Made by a program: the position numbers and the translations under genes
Assembly (NCBI GenBank): GCA_003218975.1
Contig: QHPD01000098.1
Location: forward strand, 11,880-75,879
From: Verrucomicrobiota bacterium
Lineage (GTDB): Bacteria; Verrucomicrobiota; Verrucomicrobiia; Chthoniobacterales; UBA10450
Direction: 5' to 3'
DNA: 64,000 nt
Part shown: positions 241 through 51,313 of the stretch, piece after piece
How the letters are laid out: each line of letters opens with the position of its first letter
Numbering within the stretch: position 1 is the stretch's first letter
The notes under the pieces: model-generated
Told to the model about the DNA's origin: nothing
Database searches by the model: none
The model's input: the letters and a program-made list of their open reading frames with translations, nothing else

Positions 241-381
241 GCAGATTCAGCCTGCAATACTTGGACTGCGTTGATTGCCGTCTCACCAAGGATGGTAATC
301 CGGTCAATTGCCAATCGTGATCTCAATGCCATGCCTATTAGGCTTTAGCCCGGCGTTCGTTTGTGGTAGGTTTAAAATTCA

Positions 382-1416
382 ATGCACGGCGCGTTTTATC
401 AATCGGAAGCTGATCAGCCGCACCCAAGCCGGGCGCGGGCAATCATCAAAGCGCATCCGGAGGTTCGCCGGTTAATGACGCGCAATCCGTGGACTGCTCA
501 CATTGCCGTCTCAATCGTCATCCTGCAAACAGCGATCGCGTACGGAATGGGCACGCTTGGATTTGGTTACTGGTGGCTCAGTGTGCTCATCGCTTTTTGC
601 ATCGGCGCGTTCGCCAATCACGCCAACTACGTCATCATTCATGACGCGACACATAACCTGATTTTTCGGAACGCAAGCTGGAACAAAATGGTGGCCATCA
701 TAGCCGACCTTCCAAACCTCACTCCCGGCGCAATGGGATTTCGGGTTTATCACTTAAAACATCACTCGCACCAGGGCGACTATCAATATGATGCTGATCT
801 GGCGAATCATTGGGAGGCGCGACTGGTAGGCAATAAATGGTATCGGAAGGCGATTTGGCTCATGCTGTTTCCATTTTTTCAAGTGACCCGTCCGCCTCGG
901 CTGAAAGCGGTCAAGATGTGGGATCGGTGGTTCTTCATCAATTTCGCATGCGCAGCGGCTTATGATGCAGCGGTTGTTTATTTTTGCGGCTTGCCCGGGT
1001 TTCTTTATCTCGTATTCGCGTTTTTCTTTTCGATCGGCTTGCATCCGGTAGGTGCTCGCTGGATTCAGGAGCATTACACCTACGATTTCGACCAGGAGAC
1101 GTTCAGTTATTACGGACCAATCAATCGAGTGGCCCTAAACATGGGCTATCACAACGAGCACCATGATTTGCCGTCGATCCCATGGAACAAACTTCCGAAA
1201 TTGCGCGCCATGGCGCCGGAATTCTACGATAATCTGAAGTATCACACCTCATGGAGCCGATTGCTGTTGCAGTTTATTTTTGACAAGCGATACAGCCTCT
1301 ATTCGCGCGTTGAACGAATGAGAGAATCCAGCGACTGCGCGACTCAACCGGCTCCAGACACGACAACCAGTCAGAATGGCAGTCTTGATCTCAGTGCGAG
1401 GCCAATTAAGTTCTAA
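382..1416 (+). CDS. membrane fatty-acid desaturase family, sphingolipid (dihydroceramide) Delta4-desaturase-like
   Basis: Three His boxes (HDATHN, HLKHHSH, HNEHHDLPSIPW). The N-terminal segment (QPHPSRARAIIKAHPEVRRL) resembles the Lipid_DES domain of DEGS enzymes. Multiple TM segments. Confidence 0.8.
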   Translation: MHGAFYQSEADQPHPSRARAIIKAHPEVRRLMTRNPWTAHIAVSIVILQTAIAYGMGTLGFGYWWLSVLIAFCIGAFANHANYVIIHDATHNLIFRNASWNKMVAIIADLPNLTPGAMGFRVYHLKHHSHQGDYQYDADLANHWEARLVGNKWYRKAIWLMLFPFFQVTRPPRLKAVKMWDRWFFINFACAAAYDAAVVYFCGLPGFLYLVFAFFFSIGLHPVGARWIQEHYTYDFDQETFSYYGPINRVALNMGYHNEHHDLPSIPWNKLPKLRAMAPEFYDNLKYHTSWSRLLLQFIFDKRYSLYSRVERMRESSDCATQPAPDTTTSQNGSLDLSARPIKF

Positions 1417-1418
1417 TT

Positions 1419-2033
1419 ATGGCGGAGCGGCATTACATTTCGACGAAGAACGAAACCGTTCGAATGTTCAAAAGCGATTTCATGGAGTTTTTCTCACATG
1501 TGCATCCCGCTACGCCTTTGGTCCTCTACTTTCCGGTCGTCGGTTACATGCTTTACCTAGCGTTTTGGCAAAGCCGATTGTCGATTCTGGCCGTGGCCGG
1601 TTTGTTCCTGCTCGGTGTGCTGATCTGGACTCTGCTTGAATACATTATCCACCGGTACGTTTTTCATTATGAACCAAAGACCGCTCTGGGGAAACGATTG
1701 CACTACATTATTCACGGCGTTCATCACGATTATCCCAACGATGCCCGGCGTTTGGTCATGCCGCCGAGCATCAGCATTCCGGTTGCGATCTTATTTTGGG
1801 CGCTCTTTGCCATTAGCCTTGGCCGGTTCGCGCCGGCCCTCTCCGCTGGATTTGGATTTGGCTACGTTTGCTACGACTCGATCCATTACGCGATCCATCA
1901 CTTCGAGATGAAACGGGGGGTGTGGCTTTGGCTGAAACAGTATCATCTCCGCCATCATTACAAAGATGATCACGTTGGATATGGCATCAGCTCCCCGCTT
2001 TGGGATTACGTTTTTGGGACAACGCGGAAATAG
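1419..2033 (+). CDS. fatty acid hydroxylase superfamily, FA2H/Scs7-like sphingolipid alpha-hydroxylase
   Basis: His boxes HRYVFH, HGVHHDYPND..RLVMPP, YDSIHYAIHH, YHLRHHYKD..GYGISSPLWDYVFGT match the FA2H/Scs7 pattern. Starts 3 nt after the desaturase stop. Confidence 0.8.
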   Translation: MAERHYISTKNETVRMFKSDFMEFFSHVHPATPLVLYFPVVGYMLYLAFWQSRLSILAVAGLFLLGVLIWTLLEYIIHRYVFHYEPKTALGKRLHYIIHGVHHDYPNDARRLVMPPSISIPVAILFWALFAISLGRFAPALSAGFGFGYVCYDSIHYAIHHFEMKRGVWLWLKQYHLRHHYKDDHVGYGISSPLWDYVFGTTRK

Positions 2034-2091
2034 CGTTGGGCTCTCGAAATTGGGGTGCTCGGGGATGAGGCGAGCCAAGTGCACTAAACTC

Positions 2092-2119
2092 TTGTCCCAA
2101 ATCCGAAAATTAGTAGAAT
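2092..2119 (+). promoter_or_regulatory. candidate sigma70-like promoter upstream of the SPT-like gene
   Basis: TTGTCC (2092-2097), 16-nt spacer, TAGAAT (2114-2119), about 100 nt upstream of the 2216 start. Confidence 0.25.
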
Positions 2120-2215
2120 AGCTGCCCCGATACGGAACTTCCAGCATGCAAATTGGGCCGAGCCCTTTAGGGCGTGGCAAAATGCACCTGAAAGCGCCTT
2201 AAGGATTGATTTTCA

Positions 2216-3496
2216 ATGAGCGGCAATTTGAATCGGCAACTGTCGGCGCAGGAGTTCGACGCGAAACTAAGTCTGGCTGATTTCATAGTAGGCGACAGCG
2301 ATGATCCGCTGGTGCCGCCACTGGCATTTACACAATGGCGCCAAGCCGGTGCCTGGGAGGCCACGCTTTACGAACCGGAGTTGCTCGCCACGGCAGATGC
2401 TCGGACGACGATCAATTACGAAGGGAAACCGCGTTCGGTCATCAATCTTTGCTCATACAATTATCTTGGGCTTGCCAATCATCCTGAGGTGCTGGCTGCC
2501 GCGCACGAGGCGCTCAGGACCCACGGAATGGGGGCATGTGGTTCGCCGTTGCTCTCAGGAATGACCGATCTTCACAGGGAACTGGAACGTCGTGTGGCAA
2601 AATTTCTCGGCCGCGAGGATGCGATGTTGTTTAGCAGTGGCTTCGGTGGTGCGCTCGGAACTATCTCCGGTCTCTTACGCAAGACCGACGTTGCGATCCT
2701 GGATAACCGATCGCACTTGAGCCTGCGCGACGGCGCCGTGCTTTCGCGCTCGCGCGTCGATCGCTTCGAGCACAACGATCCGGCTTCGCTCGATGCAGCG
2801 CTCAGCCGGAGAAAAGGCAAACGGCAGCTTGTCATCGTTGAAGGCATTTATTCGATGGATGGAGATTTTGCCAGTCTGGACGGATTGCTCGACGCCGCCG
2901 AGTCACACCACGCGAGTGTCTTCATTGATGAAGCGCACTCGATGCTGGCCTGCGGGGCACATGGGAGGGGCGCGGCTGAACACTTCGGCGTTGAAGGACG
3001 GATTCCGCTCGTCTACGGCACTTTCTCAAAGGCGTTCGGCGCGCTCGGCGGTTTTGTCACCGGCCCGGTCCAGACATTGGATTACTTGAGATATTACGCG
3101 CATCCCTACGCGTACTCCTGCGCCTTGCCTCCCGCGATCGTCGCCGCGGTTTTGGAGGCGCTGGAAATCGCCGGGCGCGAACCGGGCCTGCGTGATCGGC
3201 TTTGGTCGAACGCGAACTATTTCCGGGAGCACTTGAACGCGATCGGGATCGACACCGGGGCGTCGAGCACTTACATCATGCCGCTCGTTGTCGGCGATCG
3301 GGCACGAATGTACCAATTGGGTCATGAATTGCGCCGCTGCGGCCTCTTCGTCGCGCCGGTTGATTTTCCCGCCGTGCCCGAAGACCGCATCTGTTTTCGC
3401 GCCTGTGTGACGGCCAACCATACACGCGAGGATCTGGACGAAGCGCTCAATATTCTCGAGGACACACTCGTTCCAACAACGCTACAGAACGCTTGA
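2216..3496 (+). CDS. spt: alpha-oxoamine synthase (PLP), serine palmitoyltransferase-like
   Basis: AOS-family pattern with NYLGL, SGFGG, DEAHS and the PLP-lysine context GTFSKAFGALGG. SPT assignment comes from the sphingolipid gene context. Confidence 0.8.
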   Translation: MSGNLNRQLSAQEFDAKLSLADFIVGDSDDPLVPPLAFTQWRQAGAWEATLYEPELLATADARTTINYEGKPRSVINLCSYNYLGLANHPEVLAAAHEALRTHGMGACGSPLLSGMTDLHRELERRVAKFLGREDAMLFSSGFGGALGTISGLLRKTDVAILDNRSHLSLRDGAVLSRSRVDRFEHNDPASLDAALSRRKGKRQLVIVEGIYSMDGDFASLDGLLDAAESHHASVFIDEAHSMLACGAHGRGAAEHFGVEGRIPLVYGTFSKAFGALGGFVTGPVQTLDYLRYYAHPYAYSCALPPAIVAAVLEALEIAGREPGLRDRLWSNANYFREHLNAIGIDTGASSTYIMPLVVGDRARMYQLGHELRRCGLFVAPVDFPAVPEDRICFRACVTANHTREDLDEALNILEDTLVPTTLQNA

Positions 3497-4449
3497 GTGG
3501 GCAGCGTCTGAGCCTAATGCCGGAACAAATCGAGTCAGCGCCCACTCTCGAGGCCACTTACAAGGCACCCGAGGTCGAGGGAGTGCTCGATCTCTATTTT
3601 TATCGGCCAATAGGATTCCGGCTGGCTCAGTTTTTCGAGAGGCTCAAAATGACACCGGCAGGCGTGACTTTGTTCGCCGGCCTCTTCGGAATCGTTGCGG
3701 GTCATCTCTATTTTTATCGGAATTTGCGCGTCAACATCGTGGGGATGGCACTCCACGTTTGCGCTAATGCGCTCGACAACGCCGACGGTCAGCTCGCCCG
3801 CCTGACTCATCGCGAGACCCGCGAAGGCCGCATTATTGACAGCCTTGCCGATCACATTGGCTTCCTGAGTATTTACGTCCATTTGACTCTCCGTTACCTC
3901 GCCGAGGGTTCATCGCCTGCAATCTGTCTTGTTGCTATGGCGGCCGGGATCAGTCACGCATTGCAAGGCGCCGCGGCTGATTATTACCGCAGCACGTATC
4001 TTTATTTTGTCACGAACCGAGCGCGCATGGGATTGGATTCCGCCGCTGTTCTGCGATCCGATTACCAGGAGCTAAGTTGGCGTTCCAAGCCCTGGAACAA
4101 GTTCCTGCTCGCATTGTATTTGAACTTTACTCGCCAACAGGAAATGCTTGCGCCGCAGCTGAAAAAGTTGCGCGATGCAACCAGCCAACTGTTCCACGGT
4201 GAAATCCCAGACTGGTTAAGGACGCGTTATCGAAACCTAGCGAGCCCGACGTTGAAATGGTGGGGTCTCTTGATGACGAACTCACGGATGTTGGTTTTGT
4301 TTGCTTTGCTGTTCATCGGCCAGCCGATTTACTATTTCTGGTTCGAACTCATCCCGCTTAATCTTCTGCTCGTCTATCTGATTACTCGCCAGGAACACAT
4401 GGCTGAATCGCTGTTGGAAGTTACCGAGCAATGGGGAAATTCCGCGTAA
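3493..4449 (+). CDS. CDP-alcohol phosphotransferase family membrane protein
   Basis: Perfect D-x2-DG-x2-AR-x8-G-x3-D-x3-D motif (DNADGQLARLTHRETREGRIIDSLAD). Polytopic. Start overlaps the spt stop (TTGA); an ATG at 3517 is the alternative start. Confidence 0.85.
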   Translation: MSGQRLSLMPEQIESAPTLEATYKAPEVEGVLDLYFYRPIGFRLAQFFERLKMTPAGVTLFAGLFGIVAGHLYFYRNLRVNIVGMALHVCANALDNADGQLARLTHRETREGRIIDSLADHIGFLSIYVHLTLRYLAEGSSPAICLVAMAAGISHALQGAAADYYRSTYLYFVTNRARMGLDSAAVLRSDYQELSWRSKPWNKFLLALYLNFTRQQEMLAPQLKKLRDATSQLFHGEIPDWLRTRYRNLASPTLKWWGLLMTNSRMLVLFALLFIGQPIYYFWFELIPLNLLLVYLITRQEHMAESLLEVTEQWGNSA

Positions 4450-4464
4450 GTCGATTTTCTATTC

Positions 4465-5595
4465 GTGTCGAATATTGAAGTTTCAGAAGTCGGCTCGCGC
4501 CGGGATCGCGATGCGTTCATCAAATTTCAATGGCAAATTTACGCCAATGATCCGGCGTGGGTTCCGCCGTTAATCATCGAGCGAAAGGCCTTCCTCGACC
4601 GCAAGCGGCATCCGTTTTACCAGCACGGTGACGCCGCATTGTTTCTCGCGCGGCAAAACGGTGAAATCGTTGGCCGGATCATGGCGAGCGATGATCCGAA
4701 TTACAATTCGCTGCACGAGACGAATGTCGGTTGTTTTGGACTCTTCGAATGCGTGAATGACCGTGACATAGCTGCTGCGCTCTTTGATGCGGCGACCGCT
4801 TGGCTGCGAAAAAAAGGCCGAAGCGAGATCATGGGCCCGATCGATTATTCAACCAATTATGTCTGCGGCCTGTTGATCGACGGATTCCAGTTTCCCCCCA
4901 CGATCTTGACCGCGCATAATCCGCCGTACTACAGAGAGCTGATCGAGAGCTGCGGCTTCACAAAAGTCAAAGATTGGTACGCGTGGTGGTTCGCTGATCC
5001 GTCAAGAGCCGTGGTGCATTTGCGGCAACTCGCCGCGCGGTTTCGCAGGCGCTGGCCTGTCACGATTCGCCCGGCTAATCTCAAAAATCTCCGCGACGAA
5101 AGCAGACGGCTTCGCGAAATCTACAATCAAGCGTGGGAAAAAAACTGGGGCTTTGTTCCCTTTACCGAGGCTGAGTTCGATCACCTCGCGCACGAGATGA
5201 AGCCGCTCATCGTGCCGCAGGCAACGTTGCTCGCGGAAATTGGCGACAAGCCGGTCGGCTTCGTCATCGGCGTGCCCGACATCAACGTCGCCCTCCGGCG
5301 GATCAACGGACGATTGACCCGTTTTGGTTTTCCCATCGGCTTGATCAAATTGCTGTTCTACAAGCGACGCATCCGAAAAGGCCGCCTGATTGCTCTAGGT
5401 GTAGTCGAGAAATATCGTCGTGCCGGAATCGCCGAGATGCTGGTGTTACGCGTAATGGAAGAAACAATGGTCAAACGGGGGTTCACCGGCGAACTAAGCA
5501 TGACGCTCGAGGACAATTTTATGATCAACCGTTTCCTCGAAGCGATCGGCGCGCGGCGTTACAAAACGTATCGCACCTATGGCAAGAATCTGTAG
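4465..5595 (+). CDS. GNAT-fold N-acyltransferase, candidate bacterial ceramide synthase
   Basis: C-terminal GNAT motif A region (LIALGVVEKYRRAGIAEMLV) and a two-lobed, about 376 aa architecture. The ceramide-synthase role is inferred from context only. Confidence 0.5.
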   Translation: MSNIEVSEVGSRRDRDAFIKFQWQIYANDPAWVPPLIIERKAFLDRKRHPFYQHGDAALFLARQNGEIVGRIMASDDPNYNSLHETNVGCFGLFECVNDRDIAAALFDAATAWLRKKGRSEIMGPIDYSTNYVCGLLIDGFQFPPTILTAHNPPYYRELIESCGFTKVKDWYAWWFADPSRAVVHLRQLAARFRRRWPVTIRPANLKNLRDESRRLREIYNQAWEKNWGFVPFTEAEFDHLAHEMKPLIVPQATLLAEIGDKPVGFVIGVPDINVALRRINGRLTRFGFPIGLIKLLFYKRRIRKGRLIALGVVEKYRRAGIAEMLVLRVMEETMVKRGFTGELSMTLEDNFMINRFLEAIGARRYKTYRTYGKNL

Positions 5596-5626
5596 GGGAA
5601 CAGTCTGCTTCTCTCAGGGATGAAAC

Positions 5627-6730
5627 TCAGCGGTCGCGCTCGCCGCGGATGAATTGCTCAACGCAGCGATAGGCTTCGTCGTCGGTCATTTGCACGGGCG
5701 GATGCTTGGAGAAGTATGCGGAAGCCGAATGCAACACGCCGCCGATGCCGCGATCGAGTGCGAGCTTGCAGCAGCGGACGGCGTCGATCGCTACGCCGGC
5801 CGAGTTTGGCGAATCTTCCACCGAAAGTTTCACGTCGATTTCCATTGGCACATCGCCAAAGAGTCGGCCTTCCACGCGGATGAAGGCAATTTTGTTGTCG
5901 AGCTGCCACGGTACGTAATCGCTCGGGCCAATGTGGATATTTTCATCCGCCAGACGCTCGCTCATCACAGATTGGACGGCTTCGGTCTTTGAAGTTTTCT
6001 TCGACGCTAGCCGGGTGCGATTGAGCATGTTCAGGAAATCGGTGTTGCCGCCAGTGTTCAACTGATAGGTACGCACCATTCTAACGCCGCGCTTGCGAAA
6101 AAGGTCCACCAGCGCCCGATGCAGGATGGTGGCGCCCATTTGCGCTTTGATGTCGTCTCCGATGACCGGCAAATTTCTGTCGGCAAAACGCTTTGCCCAT
6201 GTTGGATCGCTCGCGATGAAAACAGGGATGTTATTGACGAAACCAAGTCCGGCTTCCAACGCGCAGCTGGCGTAGAAGCGGGTCGCCTCCTCCGAGCCAA
6301 CCGGGAGATAATTGACCATCAGCTCTGCGGAGGAGTTCTTCAATTCGGCGATGATCTGTTCGCGAGTGGATTCTTTCTCCAGCGGCAGGAACGTGCGCAA
6401 CGGGTCCTGGTCGCGCATGTGAGGAGCGAATCCGTCCAAAACGCAGCCCATTTTCACGATGGCTCCTGTGAGTTTGACCTTGTCGCAGAAAACCTTTGTG
6501 CAATTGGGCGGCGAAAAAATCGCCTTACTCACGTCAAGACCGACTTTACGCCTGTCAATGTCAAAAGCAGACACGACTTCGATATCGCCCGGCCGGTACG
6601 AGGCGATCTGGCGATGCATCAACCCGATGCCAGTGTCGTTGGCTGAGGAGCCGTCATAAAAATTTATCCCCTGAACAAGAGAGTTGGCGCAGTTTCCAAC
6701 CCCAACGATGGCGATTCTTATTTTTCTCAT
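5627..6730 (-). CDS. ino1: myo-inositol-1-phosphate synthase (inositol-3-phosphate synthase)
   Basis: N-terminal Rossmann signature KIRIAIVGVGNCANSLVQGI. Length and overall pattern are typical of bacterial/archaeal MIPS. Confidence 0.85.
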   Translation of the reverse strand: MRKIRIAIVGVGNCANSLVQGINFYDGSSANDTGIGLMHRQIASYRPGDIEVVSAFDIDRRKVGLDVSKAIFSPPNCTKVFCDKVKLTGAIVKMGCVLDGFAPHMRDQDPLRTFLPLEKESTREQIIAELKNSSAELMVNYLPVGSEEATRFYASCALEAGLGFVNNIPVFIASDPTWAKRFADRNLPVIGDDIKAQMGATILHRALVDLFRKRGVRMVRTYQLNTGGNTDFLNMLNRTRLASKKTSKTEAVQSVMSERLADENIHIGPSDYVPWQLDNKIAFIRVEGRLFGDVPMEIDVKLSVEDSPNSAGVAIDAVRCCKLALDRGIGGVLHSASAYFSKHPPVQMTDDEAYRCVEQFIRGERDR

Positions 6731-6943
6731 TTCTAAATTGTTAAAGCTGAAAAGCTATCTGAATTAGATTATTCGTAGCAAGACACAAATCAGGCCGCTT
6801 CAACCACAATAGTTGTACCTGTCTGCAGCAGCTGCGAGTATTGCAAGCGCGGAATGTGTCCGAAGTCGCGCCGGGTTGCAAGAACTGATATAAGGGGAAA
6901 ATTCACGGGCATTCTTGGTTGCAAAGAAGGCCCTTGCAAAGAG

Positions 6944-8347
6944 ATGGACCAAATGCGCTTGAAGTTCGCGGCAATCGCCACGTTGATCGCTGCCGCTGCG
7001 CCCGCTTCTATCCAGGCAGCGATCCCCACCTACACCATTGAACAAGCCGTCGCAGTCGCCGAGGCGCACAATCCTGAAATCGCGATTGCGCGGAAAAAAG
7101 TGCAAGGAGCGCGCGGCGGCTTCGTTGAAGCGCGCTCAGGATTTCTACCTTCGTTAACCTCGAGCGGGCTGTACGATAAACGGCAGCAGCAGAGCGAAAC
7201 CCGGCTGCGGAGCGAAGATTACAATGCGACACTGCGACTCGAACAGAATCTTTACACTGGCGGAGCAGTAACCAGCCAGGTGGCAATCGCGCGTTTAAAT
7301 ATTGAGAAGCAGAACTATGAGTTGCAGGAGACTGCCGGTCGGGTGGCAATGGATGTGCGGATCGCGTTTAACGAACTTCTCCTGAATCGGGCGAAGGTGC
7401 GGGTGCGTGAAGATTCGGTCCGCGTTCTCGACGAGGAACTCAAGAGCCAGCAGCAAAGTTTTAGCGCCGGTATTGTTGGTAAATTAAACGTGCAACGCGC
7501 GGAAGTGGCGCTGGCCAACGAGCAGCCGGAACTTTTCAACGCCCAAACGCAATTGAAAAATTCCTACCTCCGGCTCGGCGACCTTTTTGGCGGAGACGCC
7601 CGTCCTGGAACTGAGGCGGCGCGCTTTGAGGTTTCGGGAGAATTGCAATATCAACCAAATCATCCCGATCTGAACGACTGCCTGGCCAGGGCCAATGCAA
7701 ATCGAGCGGTAATTAAATCCCGGCAGAAGGATATCGAGATCGAGGACCAGCAATATGTTCTGGACCGGAGCGAGCTGCGGCCGCATGTCCGAGCTTTTTC
7801 CGGGTACGAGGTTTACAGCGAGCGTGATCCGGAGGTCGGTCAAGAATTCAATTACGGGGGTGTGGTGGGGATAAACGCGACGTGGAACATATTTGATGGG
7901 TTTGCCGCCAAGGGGCGCATGCAAGCCACCCGCGCCCGGCGCGAAGCAGCCGTGCAGGCGTTGGCGGCTGCTCGGCGCGCCGTCGCCTCGGAAGTACGCA
8001 GTGCATTTTTTGATCTCCAACAGGCTGAACGGGTGCTCGAAACAGAGACAAGTAACGTTCAGGCCGCAGATGAAGCTCTCGAGATTGCCAAAAGCAATTT
8101 CGCCGCCGGATTGGGAACACAACTCGACATCCTGCAAGCAGCCTCTGATGTCACTCGGACGCGCACGACTCGACTAAGCGCAATTTACCTGCACAACGTG
8201 GCTCTTGCGCGTCTCGCCCACGCCTGCGCCAGCTCGGCGGAAGCACTCAATTTCGGATCAAAAATGAAAAACGCGAAGAACGACGCTCGTAATGCAGCAC
8301 AGGCTGCCGATCTGGCGCGTCCGCCCGCAAAATTAAGCCAGCGATGA
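6944..8347 (+). CDS. TolC-family outer membrane efflux protein
   Basis: Signal peptide (MDQMRLKFAAIATLIAAAAPASIQA) followed by the OEP repeat pattern (IEQAVAVAEAHNPEIAIARKKV...). The ORF extends upstream to 6854, but ATG 6944 precedes the signal peptide. Confidence 0.8.
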   Translation: MDQMRLKFAAIATLIAAAAPASIQAAIPTYTIEQAVAVAEAHNPEIAIARKKVQGARGGFVEARSGFLPSLTSSGLYDKRQQQSETRLRSEDYNATLRLEQNLYTGGAVTSQVAIARLNIEKQNYELQETAGRVAMDVRIAFNELLLNRAKVRVREDSVRVLDEELKSQQQSFSAGIVGKLNVQRAEVALANEQPELFNAQTQLKNSYLRLGDLFGGDARPGTEAARFEVSGELQYQPNHPDLNDCLARANANRAVIKSRQKDIEIEDQQYVLDRSELRPHVRAFSGYEVYSERDPEVGQEFNYGGVVGINATWNIFDGFAAKGRMQATRARREAAVQALAAARRAVASEVRSAFFDLQQAERVLETETSNVQAADEALEIAKSNFAAGLGTQLDILQAASDVTRTRTTRLSAIYLHNVALARLAHACASSAEALNFGSKMKNAKNDARNAAQAADLARPPAKLSQR

Positions 8348-9816
8348 AGCGACGTCTTTTATTTCCGCGGAGTATGTACGGTCAACCTGTAGCGGTCGCT
8401 GTGTGGGCGACGCGACGCGCGCGTGTTAAACGCATCAGCACCGCGCTTCCCACAGCGAAGCCGCTACAACAAACGCGAAGCGCCAATGTGAAAGACACGC
8501 ACGTACGTCTTGGCCTCGTCATCACGATTTTGATGGCCTGTTTTGCATGTCCAGCCGACGCCATCACCCTGGAGACCGTTCTGCAAACTACTCTGGAAAA
8601 AAATCCGGCCATTCAGGAAGCGAAATCAGGCCTGGAACAGGCGGCCGGACAGCGTCTCGTTTTTCGTTCCATTGTTTGGCCCCACGCCGAATTGGGCGTG
8701 CCGGCCGGTGTTCAGGTCGGCCACCGGGCTGGTGAGAGCGGAGTAAAAGGGTTCGGCCTGGGGCGCGGCGCCTTGACGCAGACTTTGTTCCACGTAGCTG
8801 TGCCGCCGTCGCTCCGACGTGGAGACGTCGAAATCTTGATTGCACAACAGCAACTGAATGTTGCAGTAGTGGAGCAGCTTCACGCTGCGCGCCTGGCGTT
8901 TTACGCGGCGCTCTATAATCGGTCGCTGGAGTCCATCCGGGGCGAACAACAGCGACGGCTGCAAGAGAATGTGGCTACGCAGAAAACTCGCTACGAAGCC
9001 GGACTCGCCGATCGGAGCGCGTTCACAAGCGCTACTGTCCAAGCCTCTGAGCTGGATCCAGAAATTGAAAGCGCGCATCGGGCGTATCTGGGCGCGCAAT
9101 TGAAATTGGCCGAGGCGATGGCGATCGATGCTGCGAAGAGATCGTTGCCAGAGCCCGACGGCGAGCTGCAGTTTGCCCCGATGCGCACGGATGTTGATTC
9201 CGAAACAGCGGCGGCTTTAGAGAGGAGAGCCGATCTTAAACTCGCGCGTTTGTTGGTGCGCTCCGCCAACGAAGATCAACGGATCATCGAAGCTGGCTAT
9301 TACCCTGCGGTGATCGGAAGCATTTCAGGCGAGTACGTCCCAGTCACAGGAATTCATCGCGAAGGCTCAACGAGCAGGAACCAGGATTTTATTGGGTCAG
9401 AAATTCGCGAGAAGGCCGCGTACACGTGGCGGGTCGTCGATAATGGCAAAGTGGGAGGCGCAGTTCTCAGGGCGCGCTCGGCGCGCGAGATAAACGAACT
9501 GACCTGCCGGAAGCTGGAGGCGAATGTCCCTCGCGAGCTCTCGCGTATCGCGAACGATCTTAAGACAACGGAGGTTCGCGAAAGATCGCTCGCCGCCGCC
9601 ACAGCCGCTGCGGAAGAGAGTGCACGTATCGTACAGCAAAATCTGACCAGCGGCTTGGCGTCCCCCCTCGAATACCGCATTACACAAAATGGCTTTTTGC
9701 AGACTAAAAGCGGATTGTTAGATGCGATCTATCAACACAATCTCGCCGTTGCCGAGTGGGACCGCGCCACGGGGCGTTATTTTCAATTTTCCGACGACAC
9801 CACAAGATCGCAGTAG
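8344..9816 (+). CDS. second TolC-like outer membrane efflux protein
   Basis: OEP-like N-terminus (ITLETVLQTTLEKNPAIQEAKSG) and coiled-coil-rich repeats. ATGA overlap with the upstream TolC gene. About 50 aa precede the signal-like segment, so the true start may be internal. Confidence 0.7.
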   Translation: MKRRLLFPRSMYGQPVAVAVWATRRARVKRISTALPTAKPLQQTRSANVKDTHVRLGLVITILMACFACPADAITLETVLQTTLEKNPAIQEAKSGLEQAAGQRLVFRSIVWPHAELGVPAGVQVGHRAGESGVKGFGLGRGALTQTLFHVAVPPSLRRGDVEILIAQQQLNVAVVEQLHAARLAFYAALYNRSLESIRGEQQRRLQENVATQKTRYEAGLADRSAFTSATVQASELDPEIESAHRAYLGAQLKLAEAMAIDAAKRSLPEPDGELQFAPMRTDVDSETAAALERRADLKLARLLVRSANEDQRIIEAGYYPAVIGSISGEYVPVTGIHREGSTSRNQDFIGSEIREKAAYTWRVVDNGKVGGAVLRARSAREINELTCRKLEANVPRELSRIANDLKTTEVRERSLAAATAAAEESARIVQQNLTSGLASPLEYRITQNGFLQTKSGLLDAIYQHNLAVAEWDRATGRYFQFSDDTTRSQ

Positions 9817-9840
9817 ATGCAGCAACCAGAACCGAAGGGC

Positions 9841-9864
9841 TGTAGCGGCAGCCGTGTCGGCTGC
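9841..9864. repeat. REP-like hairpin element TGTAGCGGCAGCCGTGTCGGCTGC
   Basis: Perfect 7-bp stem GCAGCCG/CGGCTGC with loop TGT. A second copy with one mismatch lies at 40581-40604. Confidence 0.7.
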
Positions 9865-10071
9865 GTTCCTACTCTGTGCGCTGCCGTTCGCTAGGCTCCA
9901 AGCATATGGCGTGGAGCGCGGCGGCCAGGGCGGTCGTGTCGCCCTACCATCTGGCGCCTAATTGTTCGTCCCTGATCGAACGAGAGTTTCTGCTGTGGTG
10001 TCTTGCAATGATGTTCGAGAACATCTGCTAAAAGGCGAAGATGCGAATAAAAACGCTCGGGCAGCGGTTTA

Positions 10072-11268
10072 TTGCAAAGAAGTGTTACGGACACCAGACT
10101 AGTTTTCGAATTGAAATTGCCGGAATCAAAAGGGGTTCTCTGGGGCGGCGTAGCAGCTCTCGTGCTGATTTTCGTAGTGGCGTCCTATTTCGTCATGCCA
10201 GTGGCGGAAGTTGCGGTGGTGCGTCGTGGAACCGCCATTTCTGCCGTTTACGGCACCGTGCGGATCGAACCGGCGTTCGTTGTGCGCATTCGAGCGCAAA
10301 ATGACGGCTTTATCCAACTGGCGGAATCTTTCTCCGCCGGTCGTGGGGCGATCGGCAAAAGCGTAGAAAAAGGTCAGTTGCTGGCGACGATCGCCGACGA
10401 GGAAACCGCCCGGGAATTAAAACAAGCGCGCGCCGATTTGCAGGCCGCCATCCAGCGCGCCGCGCTCCCGCTTCCCTCTTCCGAGTTGCTCAAGGCAGCT
10501 GAAGACAATCTTCAACGGCTCGAGAAGGTCGTCGGCTCTGGCAACGTGCCAGCAGTCGAATTCGAGAAGGCGAAGAGCGAAGCGAACCGCCTGCGTGGCG
10601 CTTTGGAGACAGAGCGAATTGAGCGGGACCGCAATCTCAACTCGCTCGAAGAAACGACGAAAAAACTGGAGGGGGAGATGAAGAACGCCGAAGTCCGGTC
10701 GCCGATCGATGGACTTCTCACCAATGTCCAGACGATCGATGGCGAACTCGTTTCGGACGGCAACGAGCTTTTCACAGTCTCTTCACGCAAGAATTATGTT
10801 CGCGGCGAAGTAAACGAGGAAGACGTGGGCGAAGTGAAACCCGGAATGAAAGCAAAACTCCAATTGTACGCCTATCGCACACGGTCTTTCACTGCACGCG
10901 TCACCTCGGTCCAGCCGGCAGCCGATCCAACCACGCAGCGATATACCGTGGTGCTCGAAATGCAAAATCCGCCGGACAATCTAATGACTGGAATGACCGG
11001 AGAGATGAACATCATCACCGGTGCCCATCAAAATGCTCTTCTCGTGCCAACGCGCGCGCTCCTTGTCGATCAAGCGCTCGTCGTGAAACAGGGAATTGTT
11101 AATCCGCGCACGGTGAACGTTGGATTTCGCACCCTCGATTTCACAGAGGCGCTGAGTGGCTTGGCCGAAGGCGACCGCGTAATCGTTTCCGCCCAGGACA
11201 AATTCCGTCCCGGCGAAGCAGTACGGCAGCGAATGGTCAGCTCACCCCTCATGCCAACGGAACCGTGA
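10072..11268 (+). CDS. HlyD/MacA/DevB-type periplasmic membrane-fusion protein
   Basis: N-terminal TM, long coiled-coil region (ELKQARADLQAAIQ...), C-terminal beta-barrel pattern of efflux adaptor subunits. Confidence 0.85.
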   Translation: MQRSVTDTRLVFELKLPESKGVLWGGVAALVLIFVVASYFVMPVAEVAVVRRGTAISAVYGTVRIEPAFVVRIRAQNDGFIQLAESFSAGRGAIGKSVEKGQLLATIADEETARELKQARADLQAAIQRAALPLPSSELLKAAEDNLQRLEKVVGSGNVPAVEFEKAKSEANRLRGALETERIERDRNLNSLEETTKKLEGEMKNAEVRSPIDGLLTNVQTIDGELVSDGNELFTVSSRKNYVRGEVNEEDVGEVKPGMKAKLQLYAYRTRSFTARVTSVQPAADPTTQRYTVVLEMQNPPDNLMTGMTGEMNIITGAHQNALLVPTRALLVDQALVVKQGIVNPRTVNVGFRTLDFTEALSGLAEGDRVIVSAQDKFRPGEAVRQRMVSSPLMPTEP

Positions 11269-12500
11269 CCCCACCGCTTTACATCGCTCTGCGTTTTTTG
11301 ACCCATCGCAAACGGGCCTTACTTCTGAGCCTCAGCGGCGTCGTTTTCGGTGTGGCGATTTTTATCTGCACGCAGGCGCAGACCCAGGGCTTCGCGCGCT
11401 ACTTCATTGATTCGACCATCGGCAGCAACGGCGCGCTGGTTATCAGATCGCGTTTCCGTCCGCGCTACGAGCCGCTGATGGTTTCGGCGAAACGTTCTAA
11501 CGGAACGGTGGGGCGCCGCCTGTATTTTGAAGGCATCACCAACGCGAACGAAATCATGCGGGTAAGCAGACAATTCTCCAATGTGGTTTCGTGTTCGCCG
11601 GTTCTGCGTGGAACAGTCAGCGCTCGCGCGGGATTTGAAAATGCGACTGTCGATCTTTACGGCATCGATCCGGCTCTGCATGCGCAAACGACGGATCTTC
11701 TCCACCAGTTGATTGACGGCAACTTCGACAACTTTCGAAACAATACGAGCTCGATCATTATCGGTTCGCGTCTGGCAGAAATGCTTCAGGCTGGCATCGG
11801 CGACACGGTGCAATTGCTCGCGCCAAATGGGGAGTACTGGCGTTTCACTGTTGCCGCAATTGCGCGCGCGGGGATCGGATCGATTGATTCCACCCGGGTT
11901 TATACACATGCCCGGATCGCGCAGGCCCTTCTGCAACAACCTTCCGGCGCGTCGATGATCATTTACAAACTGCGCAATCCGAATCGTGCGCCCGCTCTGG
12001 CCAAACGTTTCGAAGAACTCTTCCAGCATAGCGCAACAAGTTGGCAGGACCGCGAGGAAAGCACACTGCAGCTTTTCCTTACCCTGAGAATGTCCGTCGC
12101 GATCACCGTTTCTCTTATCATCCTGCTCGCCGGTTTCGGTATTTTCAATGTGCTGACGATGTCTGTGCTGGCGAAAGTAAAGGAGATCGCCATTTTGCGT
12201 TCGATGGGTTACCGCCGGATCGATATCAGCGCGATCTTTTTGTGGCAGGGCGCGCTGATCGCGGCGGCCGGATCGCTGCTCGGCTGCGCGCTTGGCGCGC
12301 TGATGACGTGGGGAGTGTCTCATATTCCCATCCGAATCCGCGGTTTGCTGTACACGAATTACTTTCTGGTGACATGGGATTGGCGGCACTATCTCTTTGC
12401 AACATTTTTGGCCATCCTGGCCGTCTTTATCGCGAGTTATGTTCCGGCGCGTCGTGCCGCTGAGTTGCCTCCGGTTGCCACGATTAGAGGTTCCAGATGA
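11265..12500 (+). CDS. ABC transporter permease, FtsX/LolC/DevC-type
   Basis: MacB/LolC-like topology: N-terminal TM (YIALRFLTHRKRALLLSLSGV), large periplasmic domain, C-terminal FtsX TM bundle. 4-nt overlaps with both neighbours. Confidence 0.85.
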   Translation: MTPPLYIALRFLTHRKRALLLSLSGVVFGVAIFICTQAQTQGFARYFIDSTIGSNGALVIRSRFRPRYEPLMVSAKRSNGTVGRRLYFEGITNANEIMRVSRQFSNVVSCSPVLRGTVSARAGFENATVDLYGIDPALHAQTTDLLHQLIDGNFDNFRNNTSSIIIGSRLAEMLQAGIGDTVQLLAPNGEYWRFTVAAIARAGIGSIDSTRVYTHARIAQALLQQPSGASMIIYKLRNPNRAPALAKRFEELFQHSATSWQDREESTLQLFLTLRMSVAITVSLIILLAGFGIFNVLTMSVLAKVKEIAILRSMGYRRIDISAIFLWQGALIAAAGSLLGCALGALMTWGVSHIPIRIRGLLYTNYFLVTWDWRHYLFATFLAILAVFIASYVPARRAAELPPVATIRGSR

Positions 12501-13213
12501 ACGCGGATACTTGCCTCAGCTGCGAAGCGATCGAACGCTATCTGGGCGAGGCGGAGGAGCGCGTTCACGCGCTGCGCGGTGTGTCGCTCGATGTCGATGC
12601 CGGAAGTATCCACGCCGTTGTCGGCCCGTCCGGCTGCGGGAAAAGCACGTTGCTCTATGTTCTCGGACTGCTCGATCTGCCCGATGCCGGCCGCGTTTCG
12701 ATCGAATCCGAGCCCGTGTCTCATTTGAGCGATGATGAACTGGCTTTTAAACGGAGCAAGTTCATCGGCTTCATTTTTCAGTTTCATTTTCTGATGGAAG
12801 ATTTTACTGCGCAGGAAAACGTGATGATTCCGATGCGCAAGCTCGGGCAACTTTCCGATAGCAAGATGCGCCAGCGCGCCGCGCGCCTGCTGGAAGCGGT
12901 TGGATTAGGTGACAAATTGCGGAGGCCCAGCCGACATCTTTCGGGAGGCGAACAACAGCGGGTAGCGATCGCGCGCGCGCTGGCCAACGATCCGCGCGTA
13001 ATCCTGGCGGACGAACCGACCGGCAATCTCGACACCGCCAATTCCGAGCGCGCGTTTGAACTACTGCAAAACATCGTGCAGGAGGGCGGGAAAGCCTTGC
13101 TTCTGGCGACCCATAATCCCGTCATCGCCGATGCTTGCGATTGGATTCACGAAATGAAAGATGGCTGCATTGTCGCCAGCCACCCGCGCGGCGCGCGACG
13201 TTCGATCTTTTAA
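12497..13213 (+). CDS. ABC transporter ATP-binding protein, LolD/DevA/MacB-type
   Basis: Walker A GPSGCGKST, signature LSGGEQQRVAIARAL, Walker B ILADEPTGNLD, and a LolD-like FIFQFHFL..ENV segment. Confidence 0.9.
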   Translation: MNADTCLSCEAIERYLGEAEERVHALRGVSLDVDAGSIHAVVGPSGCGKSTLLYVLGLLDLPDAGRVSIESEPVSHLSDDELAFKRSKFIGFIFQFHFLMEDFTAQENVMIPMRKLGQLSDSKMRQRAARLLEAVGLGDKLRRPSRHLSGGEQQRVAIARALANDPRVILADEPTGNLDTANSERAFELLQNIVQEGGKALLLATHNPVIADACDWIHEMKDGCIVASHPRGARRSIF

Positions 13214-13312: not shown

Positions 13313-14584
13313 ATGGAGAACATCCTGCCAATCATAATCGCGGATGCACCCGAGGCGTTGATTGAATTGTGCGGCGTGAACTTACTCGAACGTCTGCTCC
13401 GCATTTTACAACGGCTCGGATTTCGCCACGCGGTTGTTTTTTCGACCACGCCGGAAATCGTCGGAGGTGAATTAGCGAAGCGCTCATGGCCGCGCGAACA
13501 AGTAATTGTCCATCTCGTCTCAGGCACAGTTGGATCCCTTACTGCCCAGCTGCTTTTAGAACAAAGACCGTCCGAGCGCTTCTTAATAGTACCAGCAAAC
13601 ATTTATTGTGACGCTCGTTTGCTTGCCGCCCTCTGCGCGAAAAATTCATCCGCCGCGCTTATCGATTCAAATCCACCGGAATTCGCGCGATCTTTAGTCC
13701 GAAATCCGTGTGGGCCGGTCTTGGTCACAAGGGATTTTCTCCTTGCATTTTCACCCGCCGCGCCGCTTTTTGAGGAACTCAAAAACAAGATCGACTACCG
13801 CAAGATCGATGTCGTCGACACAGCGGAGGAAGACGATTACATCGTCAGCATGCGTCGGCGCGTGCGGCCACTTTGTTTCCCGGTGTCGGCGGAGCAGGAC
13901 TGTCGCCTGGCTGAGCGTGTCATTCTTGATTCCGCCCAAAAGGGAACGCTCGACTTGCCGGCTTACATCCACGGACCGATCGAAACGCGAATCATCTCAC
14001 TTCTTTGCAAAACGCGAATCACGCCGAACCAAATTACGATTGCGGGTTTCATCATCGGAAGCAGCGCTACGGCGGCATTTGCGGTTGGCCGTATCGGACT
14101 CGGAATCCTCGCTGCTCTGACTTTTGGTATCGTCGATGGACTCGACGGGAAGCAGTCGCGCGTCAAAATTGAAACGACCGAGCGCGGCAAGTGGGAACAT
14201 CATCTCGATTATCTCATCGAGAATTCGTGGTGGGCGGCTATCGCCTTTTATTTGTGGCGAAGCGGCCAGTTTCCAAACGTGTTCTATTTTTTCGCTTTGC
14301 TCGTCGGATCGCACTTGTTAGATGAATTCGCGAAACGGCGGGCCAAGACCGTAAAAGGCCGCCTGCTCGATGACGTTACGCCATTCGACCGAGCTTTCCG
14401 GCTGATCGCGGCTCGGAGAAACGTTTACGTTTGGATGCTGGCGTGCGGTTTTTTGCTAGGCGCTTTTCCGCAGAGTTACGCGTTCATCTGTGGATGGGCT
14501 GCCTTCAGTGCTGCCATTCATCTCGTCCGTTCCCTCTGGATTTGTAACGCGCACGGACCGCACGTTATTGATTCGCGGACTTGA
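13313..14584 (+). CDS. fusion of a nucleotidyltransferase-like domain and a CDP-alcohol phosphotransferase-like membrane domain (IPCT/DIPPS-like architecture, divergent motifs)
   Basis: The N-terminal about 200 aa have a GT-A/NTP-transferase-like pattern but lack the G-x-G-x-R loop. The C-terminal polytopic domain has DGLDGKQSR-x8-G, but the distal Asp pair is displaced (GKWEHHLDYLIE). Confidence 0.6.
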   Translation: MENILPIIIADAPEALIELCGVNLLERLLRILQRLGFRHAVVFSTTPEIVGGELAKRSWPREQVIVHLVSGTVGSLTAQLLLEQRPSERFLIVPANIYCDARLLAALCAKNSSAALIDSNPPEFARSLVRNPCGPVLVTRDFLLAFSPAAPLFEELKNKIDYRKIDVVDTAEEDDYIVSMRRRVRPLCFPVSAEQDCRLAERVILDSAQKGTLDLPAYIHGPIETRIISLLCKTRITPNQITIAGFIIGSSATAAFAVGRIGLGILAALTFGIVDGLDGKQSRVKIETTERGKWEHHLDYLIENSWWAAIAFYLWRSGQFPNVFYFFALLVGSHLLDEFAKRRAKTVKGRLLDDVTPFDRAFRLIAARRNVYVWMLACGFLLGAFPQSYAFICGWAAFSAAIHLVRSLWICNAHGPHVIDSRT

Positions 14585-15670: not shown

Positions 15671-16085
15671 AACGCCCGCGACCTTTCTTGGACCCGAGAA
15701 CCCGCCAGCCATAAGTCGAGCGTCGGCAAGCCTGGGCGTTACCGCCAAGATCCACAGCTGTTCCAAGTGAATGTAGTGTCGATAGAACGACCGACTTGAC
15801 TCCGTGCATCATCGCCGCCGTAACGGCTTTGGTCGCGACTCGGGGATTTAGCGAACATGCCGATATTTTCCAAAAATGATCGCATTCCAACCAGCTGGCC
15901 GTGCGCTCGTAACGTCGATGTCTTGTTTCAATTTGCCGAGAACGACCGATATGTGAGCCGAGAACAGGCTTCTGCTTTTATAGACAGCGCGCCCGCAGAC
16001 AAAACTTCTGCAACGTCATGCCGCGCAAATTACGCCGCGCGAAGACGATTGTCGATCTTGCACTGGGCCTGGCGAGGTGAAACGC

Positions 16086-19020: not shown

Positions 19021-19122
19021 TCTCAGCGAGTGCTAGTCCCGGGCACGGATCTTCCGGGCGCTTCAAAGACTTTCCAGCCGTTACGGTGTGGTTTGATTTC
19101 GATAATTGTCAGACTTCCCTGC

Positions 19123-19505: not shown

Positions 19506-19507
19506 AC

Positions 19508-51221: not shown

Positions 51222-51313
51222 CGTGACGATCTCAACTCGCGAAAGCTCTTGCGCTGACTTTGCGGTTGCCGAATAAAATCCAAAGCCTTACATCTTAGGT
51301 GCTCTTTTCCATC

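Follow-up and report, generated by a model that had tools for sequence, protein, structure and literature searches.

According to our analysis, the genes lying between positions 382 and 28751 of a 64,000-nucleotide stretch of contig QHPD01000098.1 (assembly GCA_003218975.1), here called the window, are predicted to form one split biosynthetic supercluster for a complex sphingolipid, with an inositol-phosphoceramide being made by a CDP-inositol route, a reading to which we assign a probability of roughly 60%. The most likely product, judging from gene content, is a hydroxylated, unsaturated inositol-phosphoceramide, which may be glycosylated further. The reading is carried by the family-level identities of the genes, by the homology of a GNAT-family N-acyltransferase and of a CDP-alcohol phosphotransferase, CPT1, to proteins of known clusters, and by conserved synteny. 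The original prediction had held that six adjacent genes (382-6730) couple a sphingolipid cluster to inositol-phosphate head-group chemistry. This coupling passed every test that we ran, but the six genes are insufficient as a whole module, since they lack both a source of the CDP-activated donor on which a CDP-alcohol transferase depends and the 3-keto reductase required for making sphingolipids; candidates for both the cytidylyltransferase and the reductase are found 21 kb downstream (26542-28178).

Layout and conservation of the six-gene core

The six open reading frames (ORFs) encode, in order, a DEGS-type desaturase, an Scs7/FA2H-type hydroxylase, an alpha-oxoamine synthase (AOS) that resembles SPT, CPT1, the GNAT protein, and a myo-inositol-1-phosphate synthase (MIPS). 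All were confirmed at their predicted coordinates, with every Pfam domain above its gathering cut-off, the threshold by which Pfam profile searches were judged here, while NCBIfam models were judged by their equivalog cut-offs. The order of the six genes is identical in at least six independent assemblies, and AOS-CPT1-GNAT is retained in 10 to 11 of 11 related Verrucomicrobial loci; the arrangement is therefore neither a product of chance nor an assembly artefact. The source is a Chthoniobacterales bacterium related to Udaeobacter: its named relatives are Verrucomicrobia metagenome-assembled genomes (MAGs), with Candidatus Udaeobacter at 71-77% identity, and the CPT1 and GNAT homologues among the matches listed are all Udaeobacter-like, at 77% identity or more. 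A 1.5-kb contig labelled as a Pseudomonadota MAG (L017 in our numbering of compared loci) encodes a CPT1 that is 67-68% identical together with a partial AOS, and is probably a mis-binned Verrucomicrobial contig.

The desaturase and hydroxylase genes are 2 nt apart (1416/1419), CPT1 and the GNAT gene 15 nt, and the convergent GNAT and MIPS genes 31 nt. The start of CPT1 is ambiguous: a TTG codon at 3493 would overlap the AOS stop, with a 4-nt overlap of the two genes, while the ATG codon at 3514, chosen by public gene callers, leaves a 17-nt gap. The tight or overlapping junctions previously put forward therefore hold for 1416/1419 and, with the TTG start, for 3493-3496, but not for the 182-nt gap between hydroxylase and AOS (2033-2216). 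Because a promoter and terminator scan of positions 1-7000 gave nothing above shuffled expectation, the operon structure rests on spacing and synteny. Directly upstream of the desaturase, before the window start, the source contigs (L001-L006, 6001-8061) encode a dynamin-family GTPase of 686 aa; a 746-aa ORF occupies the equivalent position in L014 but not in L018.

CPT1 and the transfer of the head group

CPT1 is encoded on the forward strand (3514..4449, or from the alternative TTG start at 3493) and contains a CDP-OH_P_transf domain (3.1e-11). Its catalytic motif is the perfect CDP-alcohol phosphotransferase signature that had been recognized earlier, D88xxDGxxARx8Gx3Dx3D, with DNADGQLARLTHRETREGRIIDSLAD at residue 88. 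We propose, on the strength of its sequence and setting, that CPT1 may act as a CDP-inositol:ceramide inositolphosphotransferase. An exhaustive search of representative proteins placed it in a distinct family of ~300-aa proteins (125 clusters at 1e-30 or better), in some members of which the transferase is joined to an NTP_transferase, HAD, LPG_synthase_TM, or GFO/IDH/MocA (inositol-dehydrogenase-type) domain. When species-representative genomes were scanned for CPT1, 80 loci were recovered, 11 Verrucomicrobial and 69 from other phyla, mostly Bacteroidota and Ignavibacteriota, including Sphingobacterium, Olivibacter, Dyadobacter, Muribaculaceae, Prevotellaceae, Tannerellaceae, and Bacteroides. 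Of the 69 non-Verrucomicrobial loci, 59 have a HAD gene, 52 an NTP transferase gene, 30 a MIPS gene, and 27 an LPG-synthase-like gene at a distance of 6 kb or less from the CPT1 homologue; a Pfam check confirmed the MIPS and HAD neighbors in Sphingobacterium, and the gene neighborhood in Dyadobacter was likewise verified by Pfam. Over nearly its full length, CPT1 is 33-43% identical to the transferases of such NTP-CPT-HAD-MIPS clusters in Sphingobacterium, Bacteroides, Prevotellaceae, and Tannerellaceae.

Ceramide genes are linked to the CPT1 family in more than one phylum, because Dyadobacter has the same joining: directly upstream of its inositol cluster lie genes for Spt, bCerS (the bacterial ceramide synthase), and a CerR-type epimerase, overlapping one another at stop and start codons, and an FA2H homologue is present as well. 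Two Bacteroidales MAGs likewise join Spt and bCerS to a CPT1-family transferase. A conserved soluble protein for which Pfam has no match, ~290-304 aa long, is also encoded in the alternative inositol clusters of Bacteroidota (L041:9105-9974, L029:9073-9987), its gene lying between those of the NTP transferase and the CDP-alcohol transferase; the Dyadobacter and Sphingobacterium copies are 56% identical, and the window holds no counterpart.

The acceptor of CPT1 is the weakest step of the model, and several observations weigh against our assignment. The best profile matches of all three CDP-alcohol transferases in the window (CPT1, and CPT2 and CPT3 described below) are the synthases of archaetidylinositol phosphate (AIPS), phosphatidylinositol phosphate (PIPS), and DIPP (DIPPS), which take inositol-1-phosphate, not a lipid alcohol, as the acceptor, and CPT1 could consequently use a CDP-lipid donor. 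A HAD gene, near-universal beside CPT1 elsewhere, is absent from all 11 Verrucomicrobial loci, and in the scan of species-representative genomes the lineage is represented by MAGs only. The inositol genes might instead serve glycerophospholipids, with CPT1 and/or CPT3 making phosphatidylinositol (PI) from CDP-inositol and diacylglycerol (DAG), or phosphatidylinositol phosphate (PIP) from CDP-DAG and inositol-1-phosphate. The ceramide would then stay unmodified or receive inositol-phosphate from PI by another enzyme, following the logic of Bacteroides and eukaryotes, and the clustering would reflect co-regulation of membrane-lipid genes. Such an arrangement finds support in the above profile matches and in the literature, where Heaver et al. 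put DAG forward as the acceptor and the HAD protein as the enzyme that afterwards makes the transfer to ceramide (PMC9246714), a point that also tells against a direct transfer, and where thin-layer chromatography of species lacking the cluster of the Bacteroides thetaiotaomicron (BT) type gave bands that fit PI-DAG as well as phosphoinositol dihydroceramide (PI-DHC) (PMC9246714). We nevertheless consider it rather unlikely: the CPT1 gene is flanked by those of SPT and the ceramide synthase in 10 to 11 of the 11 Verrucomicrobial loci, as CPT1-family transferases are joined to Spt and bCerS in Dyadobacter and the two Bacteroidales MAGs; the scanned window ORFs of at least 180 aa include no HAD protein and no clear PAP2/AUR1-like transferase, a sub-threshold VCPO_2nd match at 61538-62383 being all that comes near it; and CPT1 gave no match to the model of the BT_1523 PIPS (PIPSynBT1523, NF052561), to which CPT2 and CPT3 match weakly (6.4e-6 and 4.6e-4).

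Inositol-phosphate supply and the distal genes

MIPS (5627..6730, reverse strand, convergent with the GNAT gene) is of the short bacterial/archaeal type. Its identification is upheld by Inos-1-P_synth (PF01658; 5.2e-36, 123.5 bits versus a cut-off of 27) and by TIGR03450, aligned over 1-355 of 355 positions (4.5e-130), with a score of 434 bits that is below the mycothiol-specific equivalog cut-off of 638. A mycothiol reading of the region, built on MIPS, a PIG-L deacetylase, and a double-GNAT protein (MshB/MshD-like), was rejected, as the GNAT protein has no MshD match in the PDB and is a YghO/bCerS homologue, and the PIG-L gene is not syntenic in relatives.

The donor for CPT1 could come from the IPCT-like NTP transferase encoded at 27312..28178 (forward strand), which is predicted from its closest families to make CDP-inositol from CTP and inositol-1-phosphate. 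Its best profile match is the IPCT half of the IPCT/DIPPS model NF041135 (1.6e-34, the next family at 4e-21), a margin of 13 orders of magnitude over the sugar-1-phosphate families; the score is below the cut-off of that bifunctional model, as expected of a single-domain protein. The PDB search agrees, with Archaeoglobus fulgidus IPCT (2xme, 4.6e-20) and IPCT/DIPPS (4mnd, 1.3e-19) ahead of sugar-1-phosphate enzymes (5e-13). The gene is contiguous with the ceramide cluster in seven relatives. Next to it, a gene with its true start probably at 26542 (26542..27342, forward strand) encodes an SDR protein (adh_short, 2.1e-40) that is a candidate 3-ketodihydrosphingosine or 3-keto-ceramide reductase. 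Its candidacy as a KdsR-type enzyme is suggested by synteny, the SDR and IPCT genes being neighbors that form one block with the ceramide genes in L013, L015, L018, L019, L022, and L033.

Two further CDP-alcohol transferases accompany these genes. CPT3 (28044..28751, reverse strand) is DIPPS-like, with a perfect motif and matches to the DIPPS half of the fused model (7e-21) and to archaetidylinositol-phosphate synthase (9e-13); its gene directly follows that of the GNAT protein in L013, L015, L020, L022, and L033. CPT2 (13313..14584, forward strand, 423 aa) shows CDP-OH_P_transf (9.1e-5), IPCT/DIPPS (3.4e-13), and PDB 4mnd from residue 188 (9e-10). Its C-terminal DIPPS-like transferase domain carries the degenerate motif DGLDGKQSR..G-x6-D-x3-E, and the protein equals IPCT/DIPPS in size and in the position of this domain. 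We checked whether its N-terminal 187 aa might be a degenerate IPCT, and found no matches and no detectable similarity to the window IPCT. In L018, L019, and L022, CPT2 is syntenic and each time paired with a radical SAM protein, which in the window is encoded at 14456..15766 on the reverse strand (Radical_SAM, 5.8e-22; sub-threshold MoaA, PqqE, and viperin-like matches). Taken across seven related Verrucomicrobial loci, the order is FAH-AOS-CPT1-GNAT, with or without the desaturase (DES) in front, then CPT3 or CPT2 with the radical SAM gene, then IPCT and SDR in most; GT2 and flippase genes come next in four to five of the seven, and GT-C and ABC/MacB genes are often near. In the lineage of the window, MIPS and an OEP/HlyD/MacB exporter separate the two halves of the cluster.

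Some features of these genes weigh against their assigned roles. The SDR reaches 162 bits (1.7e-47) with the KdsR model NF049977, for which the cut-off is 400, and generic SDR models score slightly higher. The IPCT of the window matches the NTP transferases of the main Bacteroidota clusters at 20-29 bits and is of a different subfamily; with a second NTP transferase in two Bacteroidales MAGs it reaches 39-48 bits. MIPS is adjacent in the window's own lineage (L001-L006) only and is not found within 10 kb of the cluster in more distant Verrucomicrobial relatives. This last observation speaks for the possibility that CPT1 transfers some other phospho-alcohol, such as ethanolamine, glycerol, or glycerate, from a CDP-alcohol to ceramide, the adjacency of MIPS being incidental or serving a soluble solute of the di-inositol-phosphate type made by IPCT and CPT3. 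An IPCT with a DIPPS-like enzyme is indeed the classic pair for the di-myo-inositol phosphate solute, and the Caulobacter sphingolipid head group is made via a CDP-glycerate-type activation (PMC12275187). A head group other than inositol is, however, improbable given that the CPT1 family stands beside MIPS in 30 of the 69 loci of other phyla and is found fused to an inositol-dehydrogenase-type domain, that carriers of the alternative cluster make PI-dihydroceramide (PMC9246714), and that the sole cytidylyltransferase of the Verrucomicrobial clusters is IPCT-like by the above margin. A CpgD-type cytidylyltransferase was also considered and rejected, as a blastp search at 1e-3 did not match the window IPCT to the NTP transferase encoded in a Roseomonas sphingolipid locus, which we take as CpgD-like, and the best matches of the former are IPCTs.

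Ceramide-forming genes

The GNAT protein (4465..5595, forward strand) has an Acetyltransf_1 match in its C-terminal half only (4.4e-11). Homologues were found by tblastn of annotated plasmid and chromid records followed by blastp, and the full-length comparison, in which homology spans ~376 aa, gave proteins of Streptomyces (42% identity, 3e-102), E. coli (YghO, 37%, 7e-81), Roseomonas (37%, 6e-72), and Sphingomonas parapaucimobilis (32%, 2e-66). The genes around them are telling. In Sphingomonas they encode an NAD(P)H-binding protein, an acyl carrier protein (ACP), a class I/II aminotransferase, LptFG, and a desaturase in addition to the GNAT protein; yghO in E. coli (PN43 record NZ_MG591698.1, L008, 3525-9122) is accompanied by genes for an aminotransferase, an ACP, an NAD-epimerase, and a fatty acyl-AMP ligase, with LptFG nearby; in Streptomyces the set is aminotransferase, GNAT, and NAD-epimerase; and the Roseomonas gene is flanked by those of a sterol-desaturase-family protein and an NTP transferase. 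Since the contexts in the first three match the five-gene ceramide set of Caulobacter (Spt, AcpR, AasR, CerR, and the N-acyltransferase CerS) (PMC11324152; PMC11087976), the GNAT protein belongs to the bacterial ceramide-synthase family, a placement made by sequence through proteins in orthologous contexts rather than through Caulobacter CCNA_01212/CC_1154 itself. The earlier claim of a shared GNAT fold is thereby exceeded, the protein being a full-length homologue of the GNATs of ceramide clusters. No homologue of the CerR-type epimerase of Dyadobacter was found in the window, where the KdsR-like SDR is the syntenic reductase instead.

The AOS (2216..3496, forward strand; Aminotran_1_2, 5.4e-56) had been assigned to the SPT class, and this is the best reading of its motif, tree position, and neighbors, though the case is not closed. 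Its lysine motif is GTFSKA; SPTs have GTFSKS, KBL has GTLGKA, and most BioF sequences have xTFGK, so that GTFSK is common to the AOS and to all sequences with SPT context. In the PDB, the best match is the Sphingobacterium SPT (6e-76, 259.5 bits), closely followed by E. coli KBL (2e-74, 254.4 bits). We built a bootstrapped neighbor-joining tree of 22 sequences and 382 columns, in which the KBL, BioF, and HemA references were validated by neighboring tdh, bio, and heme/photosynthesis genes, respectively, and the SPTs by their setting in ceramide clusters. The clades of KBL, BioF, and HemA do not include the Verrucomicrobial one (100% bootstrap), so that the AOS does not group with BioF or KBL, the outcome that had been named as refuting the assignment. 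The AOS adjoins CPT1 in 11 of the 11 Verrucomicrobial loci, and the bCerS-family GNAT is one gene off in the window and in 10 of the 11 related loci; genomic co-localization with bCerS, which the AOS shows, is the criterion used for 'Spt-like' proteins (PMC11334938).

Against the SPT assignment stand the 30% bootstrap with which the AOS joins the context-validated SPTs, its roughly equidistant identity of 31-37% to SPT, KBL, and BioF references, and its failure to reach any NCBIfam SPT cut-off (CFB 320 versus 640, BetaP 311.5 versus 500, and AlphaP 242 versus 670); it is also below the bioF and KBL cut-offs, the scores of the bioF, KBL, and SPT models being about equal. These values, together with a strong match to a cysteate-C-fatty acyltransferase structure (8e-56), would allow the AOS to make another N-acylated amino-lipid, from a 1-deoxy (alanine-derived) or glycine-derived base, or a capnine-type sulfonolipid from cysteate, which we deem highly improbable in view of the GTFSK motif common to all context-validated SPTs, of the neighboring bCerS-family GNAT, DEGS-type desaturase, and Scs7-type hydroxylase, and of the phosphotransferase of the operon, which would need the C1 hydroxyl that only a serine-derived base is expected to provide. 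The best plasmid E-value to the window AOS (5e-79) belongs to an SPT-like AOS with the motif GTFSKS on the Bacteroides uniformis conjugative plasmid pBuniCL03T12-1 (L093, 1461-7811), where the AOS gene lies beside that of a TetR regulator and two genes from that of a MAC/perforin-domain protein.

The two modifying enzymes at the head of the cluster bear out what had been claimed of them. The desaturase (382..1416, forward strand) has the DEGS domain architecture by Pfam, with an N-terminal Lipid_DES domain at residues 5-37 (PF08557; 5.4e-10, 39 bits versus a cut-off of 23), followed by the three-His-box membrane FA_desaturase domain (PF00487; 2.8e-25, 90 bits) with the boxes HDATH(87), HLKHH(124), and HNEHH(257). 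It is present in 4 of the 11 related Verrucomicrobial loci; a tblastn search of 72,556 plasmid records gave no match, and a PDB sequence search no relative. The hydroxylase (1419..2033, forward strand) is an Scs7/FA2H-type fatty-acyl 2-hydroxylase consisting of the catalytic domain only (FA_hydroxylase, 1.8e-19). It aligns with yeast Scs7 (PDB 4zr1) over 168 residues, 34-201 (1.7e-32), and the alignment takes in the His motifs HRYVFH, HYIIH (which continues into HGVHH), HYAIHH, and HLRHH, making the protein a close homologue of the Scs7/FA2H catalytic domain. Because this 204-aa protein lacks the cytochrome b5 domain, the alignment beginning at residue 202 of full-length Scs7, it would require an external electron donor. 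Homologues occur in the Dyadobacter clusters (45-48% identity), on Novosphingobium plasmids, and on an Acidisoma plasmid that also carries a GNAT homologue. Sphingolipid-linked FA2H homologues have been reported in myxobacteria.

Predicted pathway, glycosylation, and export

From this gene content we infer all substrates, the acceptor of CPT1, the order of the steps, glycosylation, and export as follows. The SPT-like AOS (2216-3496) would form 3-ketodihydrosphingosine from serine and an acyl thioester, which would be N-acylated by the GNAT protein (4465-5595) and reduced at the 3-keto group by the SDR (26542-27342), in either order. The Scs7-like hydroxylase (1419-2033) is predicted to 2-hydroxylate the N-acyl chain, and the DEGS-like desaturase (382-1416) to add the sphingoid double bond. 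MIPS (5627-6730) would supply inositol-1-phosphate, from which IPCT (27312-28178) would make CDP-inositol, and CPT1 (3514-4449) would transfer inositol-phosphate onto the C1 hydroxyl of the ceramide with release of CMP, yielding inositol-phosphoceramide. CPT3, CPT2, GT2, the flippase, and GT-C probably elaborate the head group, and the MacB/OEP system may export the lipid. A precedent comes from Caulobacter, where a nucleotidyltransferase is paired with a CDP-alcohol transferase in building the head group of a sphingolipid (PMC12275187, PMC11324152).

The candidate set for head-group glycosylation comprises a flippase (22436-24022, forward strand; Polysacc_synt, 8.1e-14), a GT2 glycosyltransferase (24019-24909, reverse strand; Glycos_transf_2, 4.4e-5), and U507, a GT-C-like polytopic protein of 507 aa (25022-26545, forward strand) with at least eight predicted transmembrane segments. 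U507 has no Pfam or NCBIfam match; its N-terminal loop DEIDAVQF...HPPGYPLF is GT-C-like, its gene ends in an overlap with the beginning of the SDR gene, and L018 has a homologue. GT2 and the flippase adjoin the SDR in L013, L015, L018, and L022, with GT2 alone also in L033 and the flippase alone in L019. Two PMT_2-type GT-C glycosyltransferases are encoded at 17275..21022 on the reverse strand (2.3e-5 and 3.3e-15), and homologues of these flank the cluster in L013, L015, L018, and L019; PDB sequence searches with GT2 and GT-C gave no relative. Mycobacterial phosphatidylinositol mannoside (PIM) and ArnT-type systems are analogues in which glycosylation is periplasmic and uses polyprenol-phosphate sugars, and by this analogy, together with Pfam matches and synteny, GT2, the flippase, and GT-C suggest a similar chemistry here.

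Between the two halves of the cluster, at 6854..13213 on the forward strand, Pfam annotation of the same genes on source contigs identifies two OEP (TolC-like) proteins, an HlyD-type adaptor, a MacB-type permease, and an ABC ATPase. ABC and MacB homologues stand beside the cluster in L018, L022, and L033, and proteobacterial ceramide clusters have LptF/G-type permeases in the place of MacB/OEP. Export of the lipid by this set is possible and is the weakest link among the parts of the cluster. Only tentatively would we extend the predicted pathway to a glycosyl-inositol-phosphoceramide resembling those of plants and fungi, in which CPT1 would work as a Kennedy-type enzyme, CPT3 and CPT2 would add inositol-phosphate, GT2, the flippase, and GT-C would glycosylate in the periplasm, and the MacB/TolC-like system would deliver the lipid to the outer membrane.

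Within the lipid region of the window there are also a PIG-L family deacetylase (GlcNAc-PI de-N-acetylase fold; weak BshB/MshB matches) and a GT9 heptosyltransferase, at 16086-17249 and 21031-22278, neither of which is syntenic in related genomes. Elsewhere, dnaA and dnaN at 49860-52411 place the window beside the region of the chromosomal replication origin, and the genes for SelA (L-seryl-tRNA selenium transferase) and an AIRS-family SelD-like protein adjoin at 37460-39852, pointing to selenocysteine machinery.

Novelty and significance

Bacterial inositol-phosphoceramide is known from Bacteroides, Tannerella, Sphingobacterium, and Myxococcus. The claim that the gene combination was uncharacterized was overstated in this respect, the more so as the CPT1 family had already been proposed, unconfirmed, for an alternative route (PMC9246714); what stands is that the exact gene composition, a DEGS-type desaturase with an archaeal-type IPCT and three CDP-alcohol transferases in the absence of HAD, was not found in the literature searched. 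Bacterial Spt and bCerS are likewise already known, and Spt-like genes have been reported in Verrucomicrobiota MAGs (PMC11334938); we found no report in the literature searched that links Udaeobacter or Chthoniobacterales to sphingolipids or inositol lipids, nor one of inositol-phosphoceramide in Verrucomicrobia.

Inositol sphingolipids of bacteria are documented in few lineages, and the sole characterized route, that of B. thetaiotaomicron, goes via PIP and PI, whereas a route through CDP-inositol has been proposed and never experimentally shown. The cluster described here is a compact test case for it, in which the gene of the candidate transferase is flanked by those of SPT and the ceramide synthase and an archaeal-type IPCT is supplied. 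It lends itself well to reconstitution in a heterologous host, by which the workings of the alternative pathway could be settled, also for Bacteroides and Prevotella of the gut. If our reading is correct, CPT1 would be a third, non-homologous solution to inositol-phosphoceramide synthesis beside the eukaryotic AUR1 and the Bacteroides BT_1522 types. As Udaeobacter-type Verrucomicrobia are among the most abundant soil bacteria, a lipid class that soil lipidomics usually attributes to fungi or plants would then have a large bacterial source, and the finding would bear on how the outer membrane is constructed in these uncultured bacteria. The DEGS-type desaturase is a candidate for giving a bacterium true, Delta4-unsaturated ceramide in place of dihydroceramide.

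Comparison with known systems

A close likeness is to the alternative cluster putatively assigned to inositol lipids in B. vulgatus and Prevotella, in which an NTP transferase (BVU_RS13095), a CDP-alcohol transferase (BVU_RS13105), and a HAD protein (BVU_RS13115) are encoded beside MIPS and for which a transferase-HAD fusion was described (PMC9246714). Species with this cluster alone make PI-dihydroceramide, the functions of the genes being unconfirmed in that work (PMC9246714), and we found no later confirmation of them in the literature searched. The CPT1 family occurs in clusters of this architecture, including the transferase-HAD fusion, a likeness drawn through Bacteroidota members and not through the B. 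vulgatus proteins, and the systems share MIPS, a cytidylyltransferase, and a CDP-alcohol transferase that are predicted to yield an inositol-phospho-lipid in a sphingolipid producer. Unlike the alternative cluster, those of Verrucomicrobia are devoid of HAD, of the LPG-synthase-like gene, and of the ~290-304-aa conserved protein; the cytidylyltransferase of the window is an IPCT of the archaeal/Thermotoga type, two extra CDP-alcohol transferases are present, and CPT1 is embedded between SPT and the ceramide synthase.

The characterized B. thetaiotaomicron system, BT_1522/1523/1525/1526 (PI-DHC synthase, PIP synthase, PIP phosphatase, and MIPS), has the same predicted product class and the same first step, that of MIPS, but proceeds from CDP-DAG and inositol-phosphate to PIP and PI before transfer to ceramide; homologues of its PIP phosphatase and PI-DHC synthase were not seen in the scans of window ORFs. 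With Caulobacter and Sphingomonas (Spt, AcpR, AasR, CerS CC_1154, and CerR CC_1164) the window shares an Spt-like AOS and a YghO/bCerS-family GNAT, and, with Caulobacter CpgD and CC_1159, the pairing of a nucleotidyltransferase with a CDP-alcohol-transferase-type enzyme (PMC11324152, PMC12275187). It differs from them in having no dedicated ACP, acyl-ACP synthetase, or epimerase-type CerR, with a Bacteroides-type SDR candidate instead, in its predicted head group, inositol-phosphate in place of phosphoglycerate, and in its MacB/OEP-type rather than LptF/G-like transporter.

The IPCT/DIPPS system of hyperthermophiles (Archaeoglobus, Thermococcus, and Thermotoga) provides the IPCTs closest to the window NTP transferase and the DIPPS domain best matched by CPT3 and CPT2. 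In the window, unlike in that system, these are separate genes and stand in the lipid cluster of a mesophilic soil bacterium, and a lipid is the likelier product of the IPCT and CPT genes than a compatible solute. The resemblance to eukaryotic DEGS1/Des1 and FA2H/Scs7 lies in the architecture of the desaturase and the alignment of the hydroxylase, and the predicted lipid is like the inositol-phosphoceramide of fungi and plants. Unlike in eukaryotes, the SPT and the ceramide synthase are of soluble bacterial types, and the inositol-phosphoceramide step is predicted to be carried out by a CDP-alcohol transferase in place of the PAP2-type PI:ceramide transferase AUR1.

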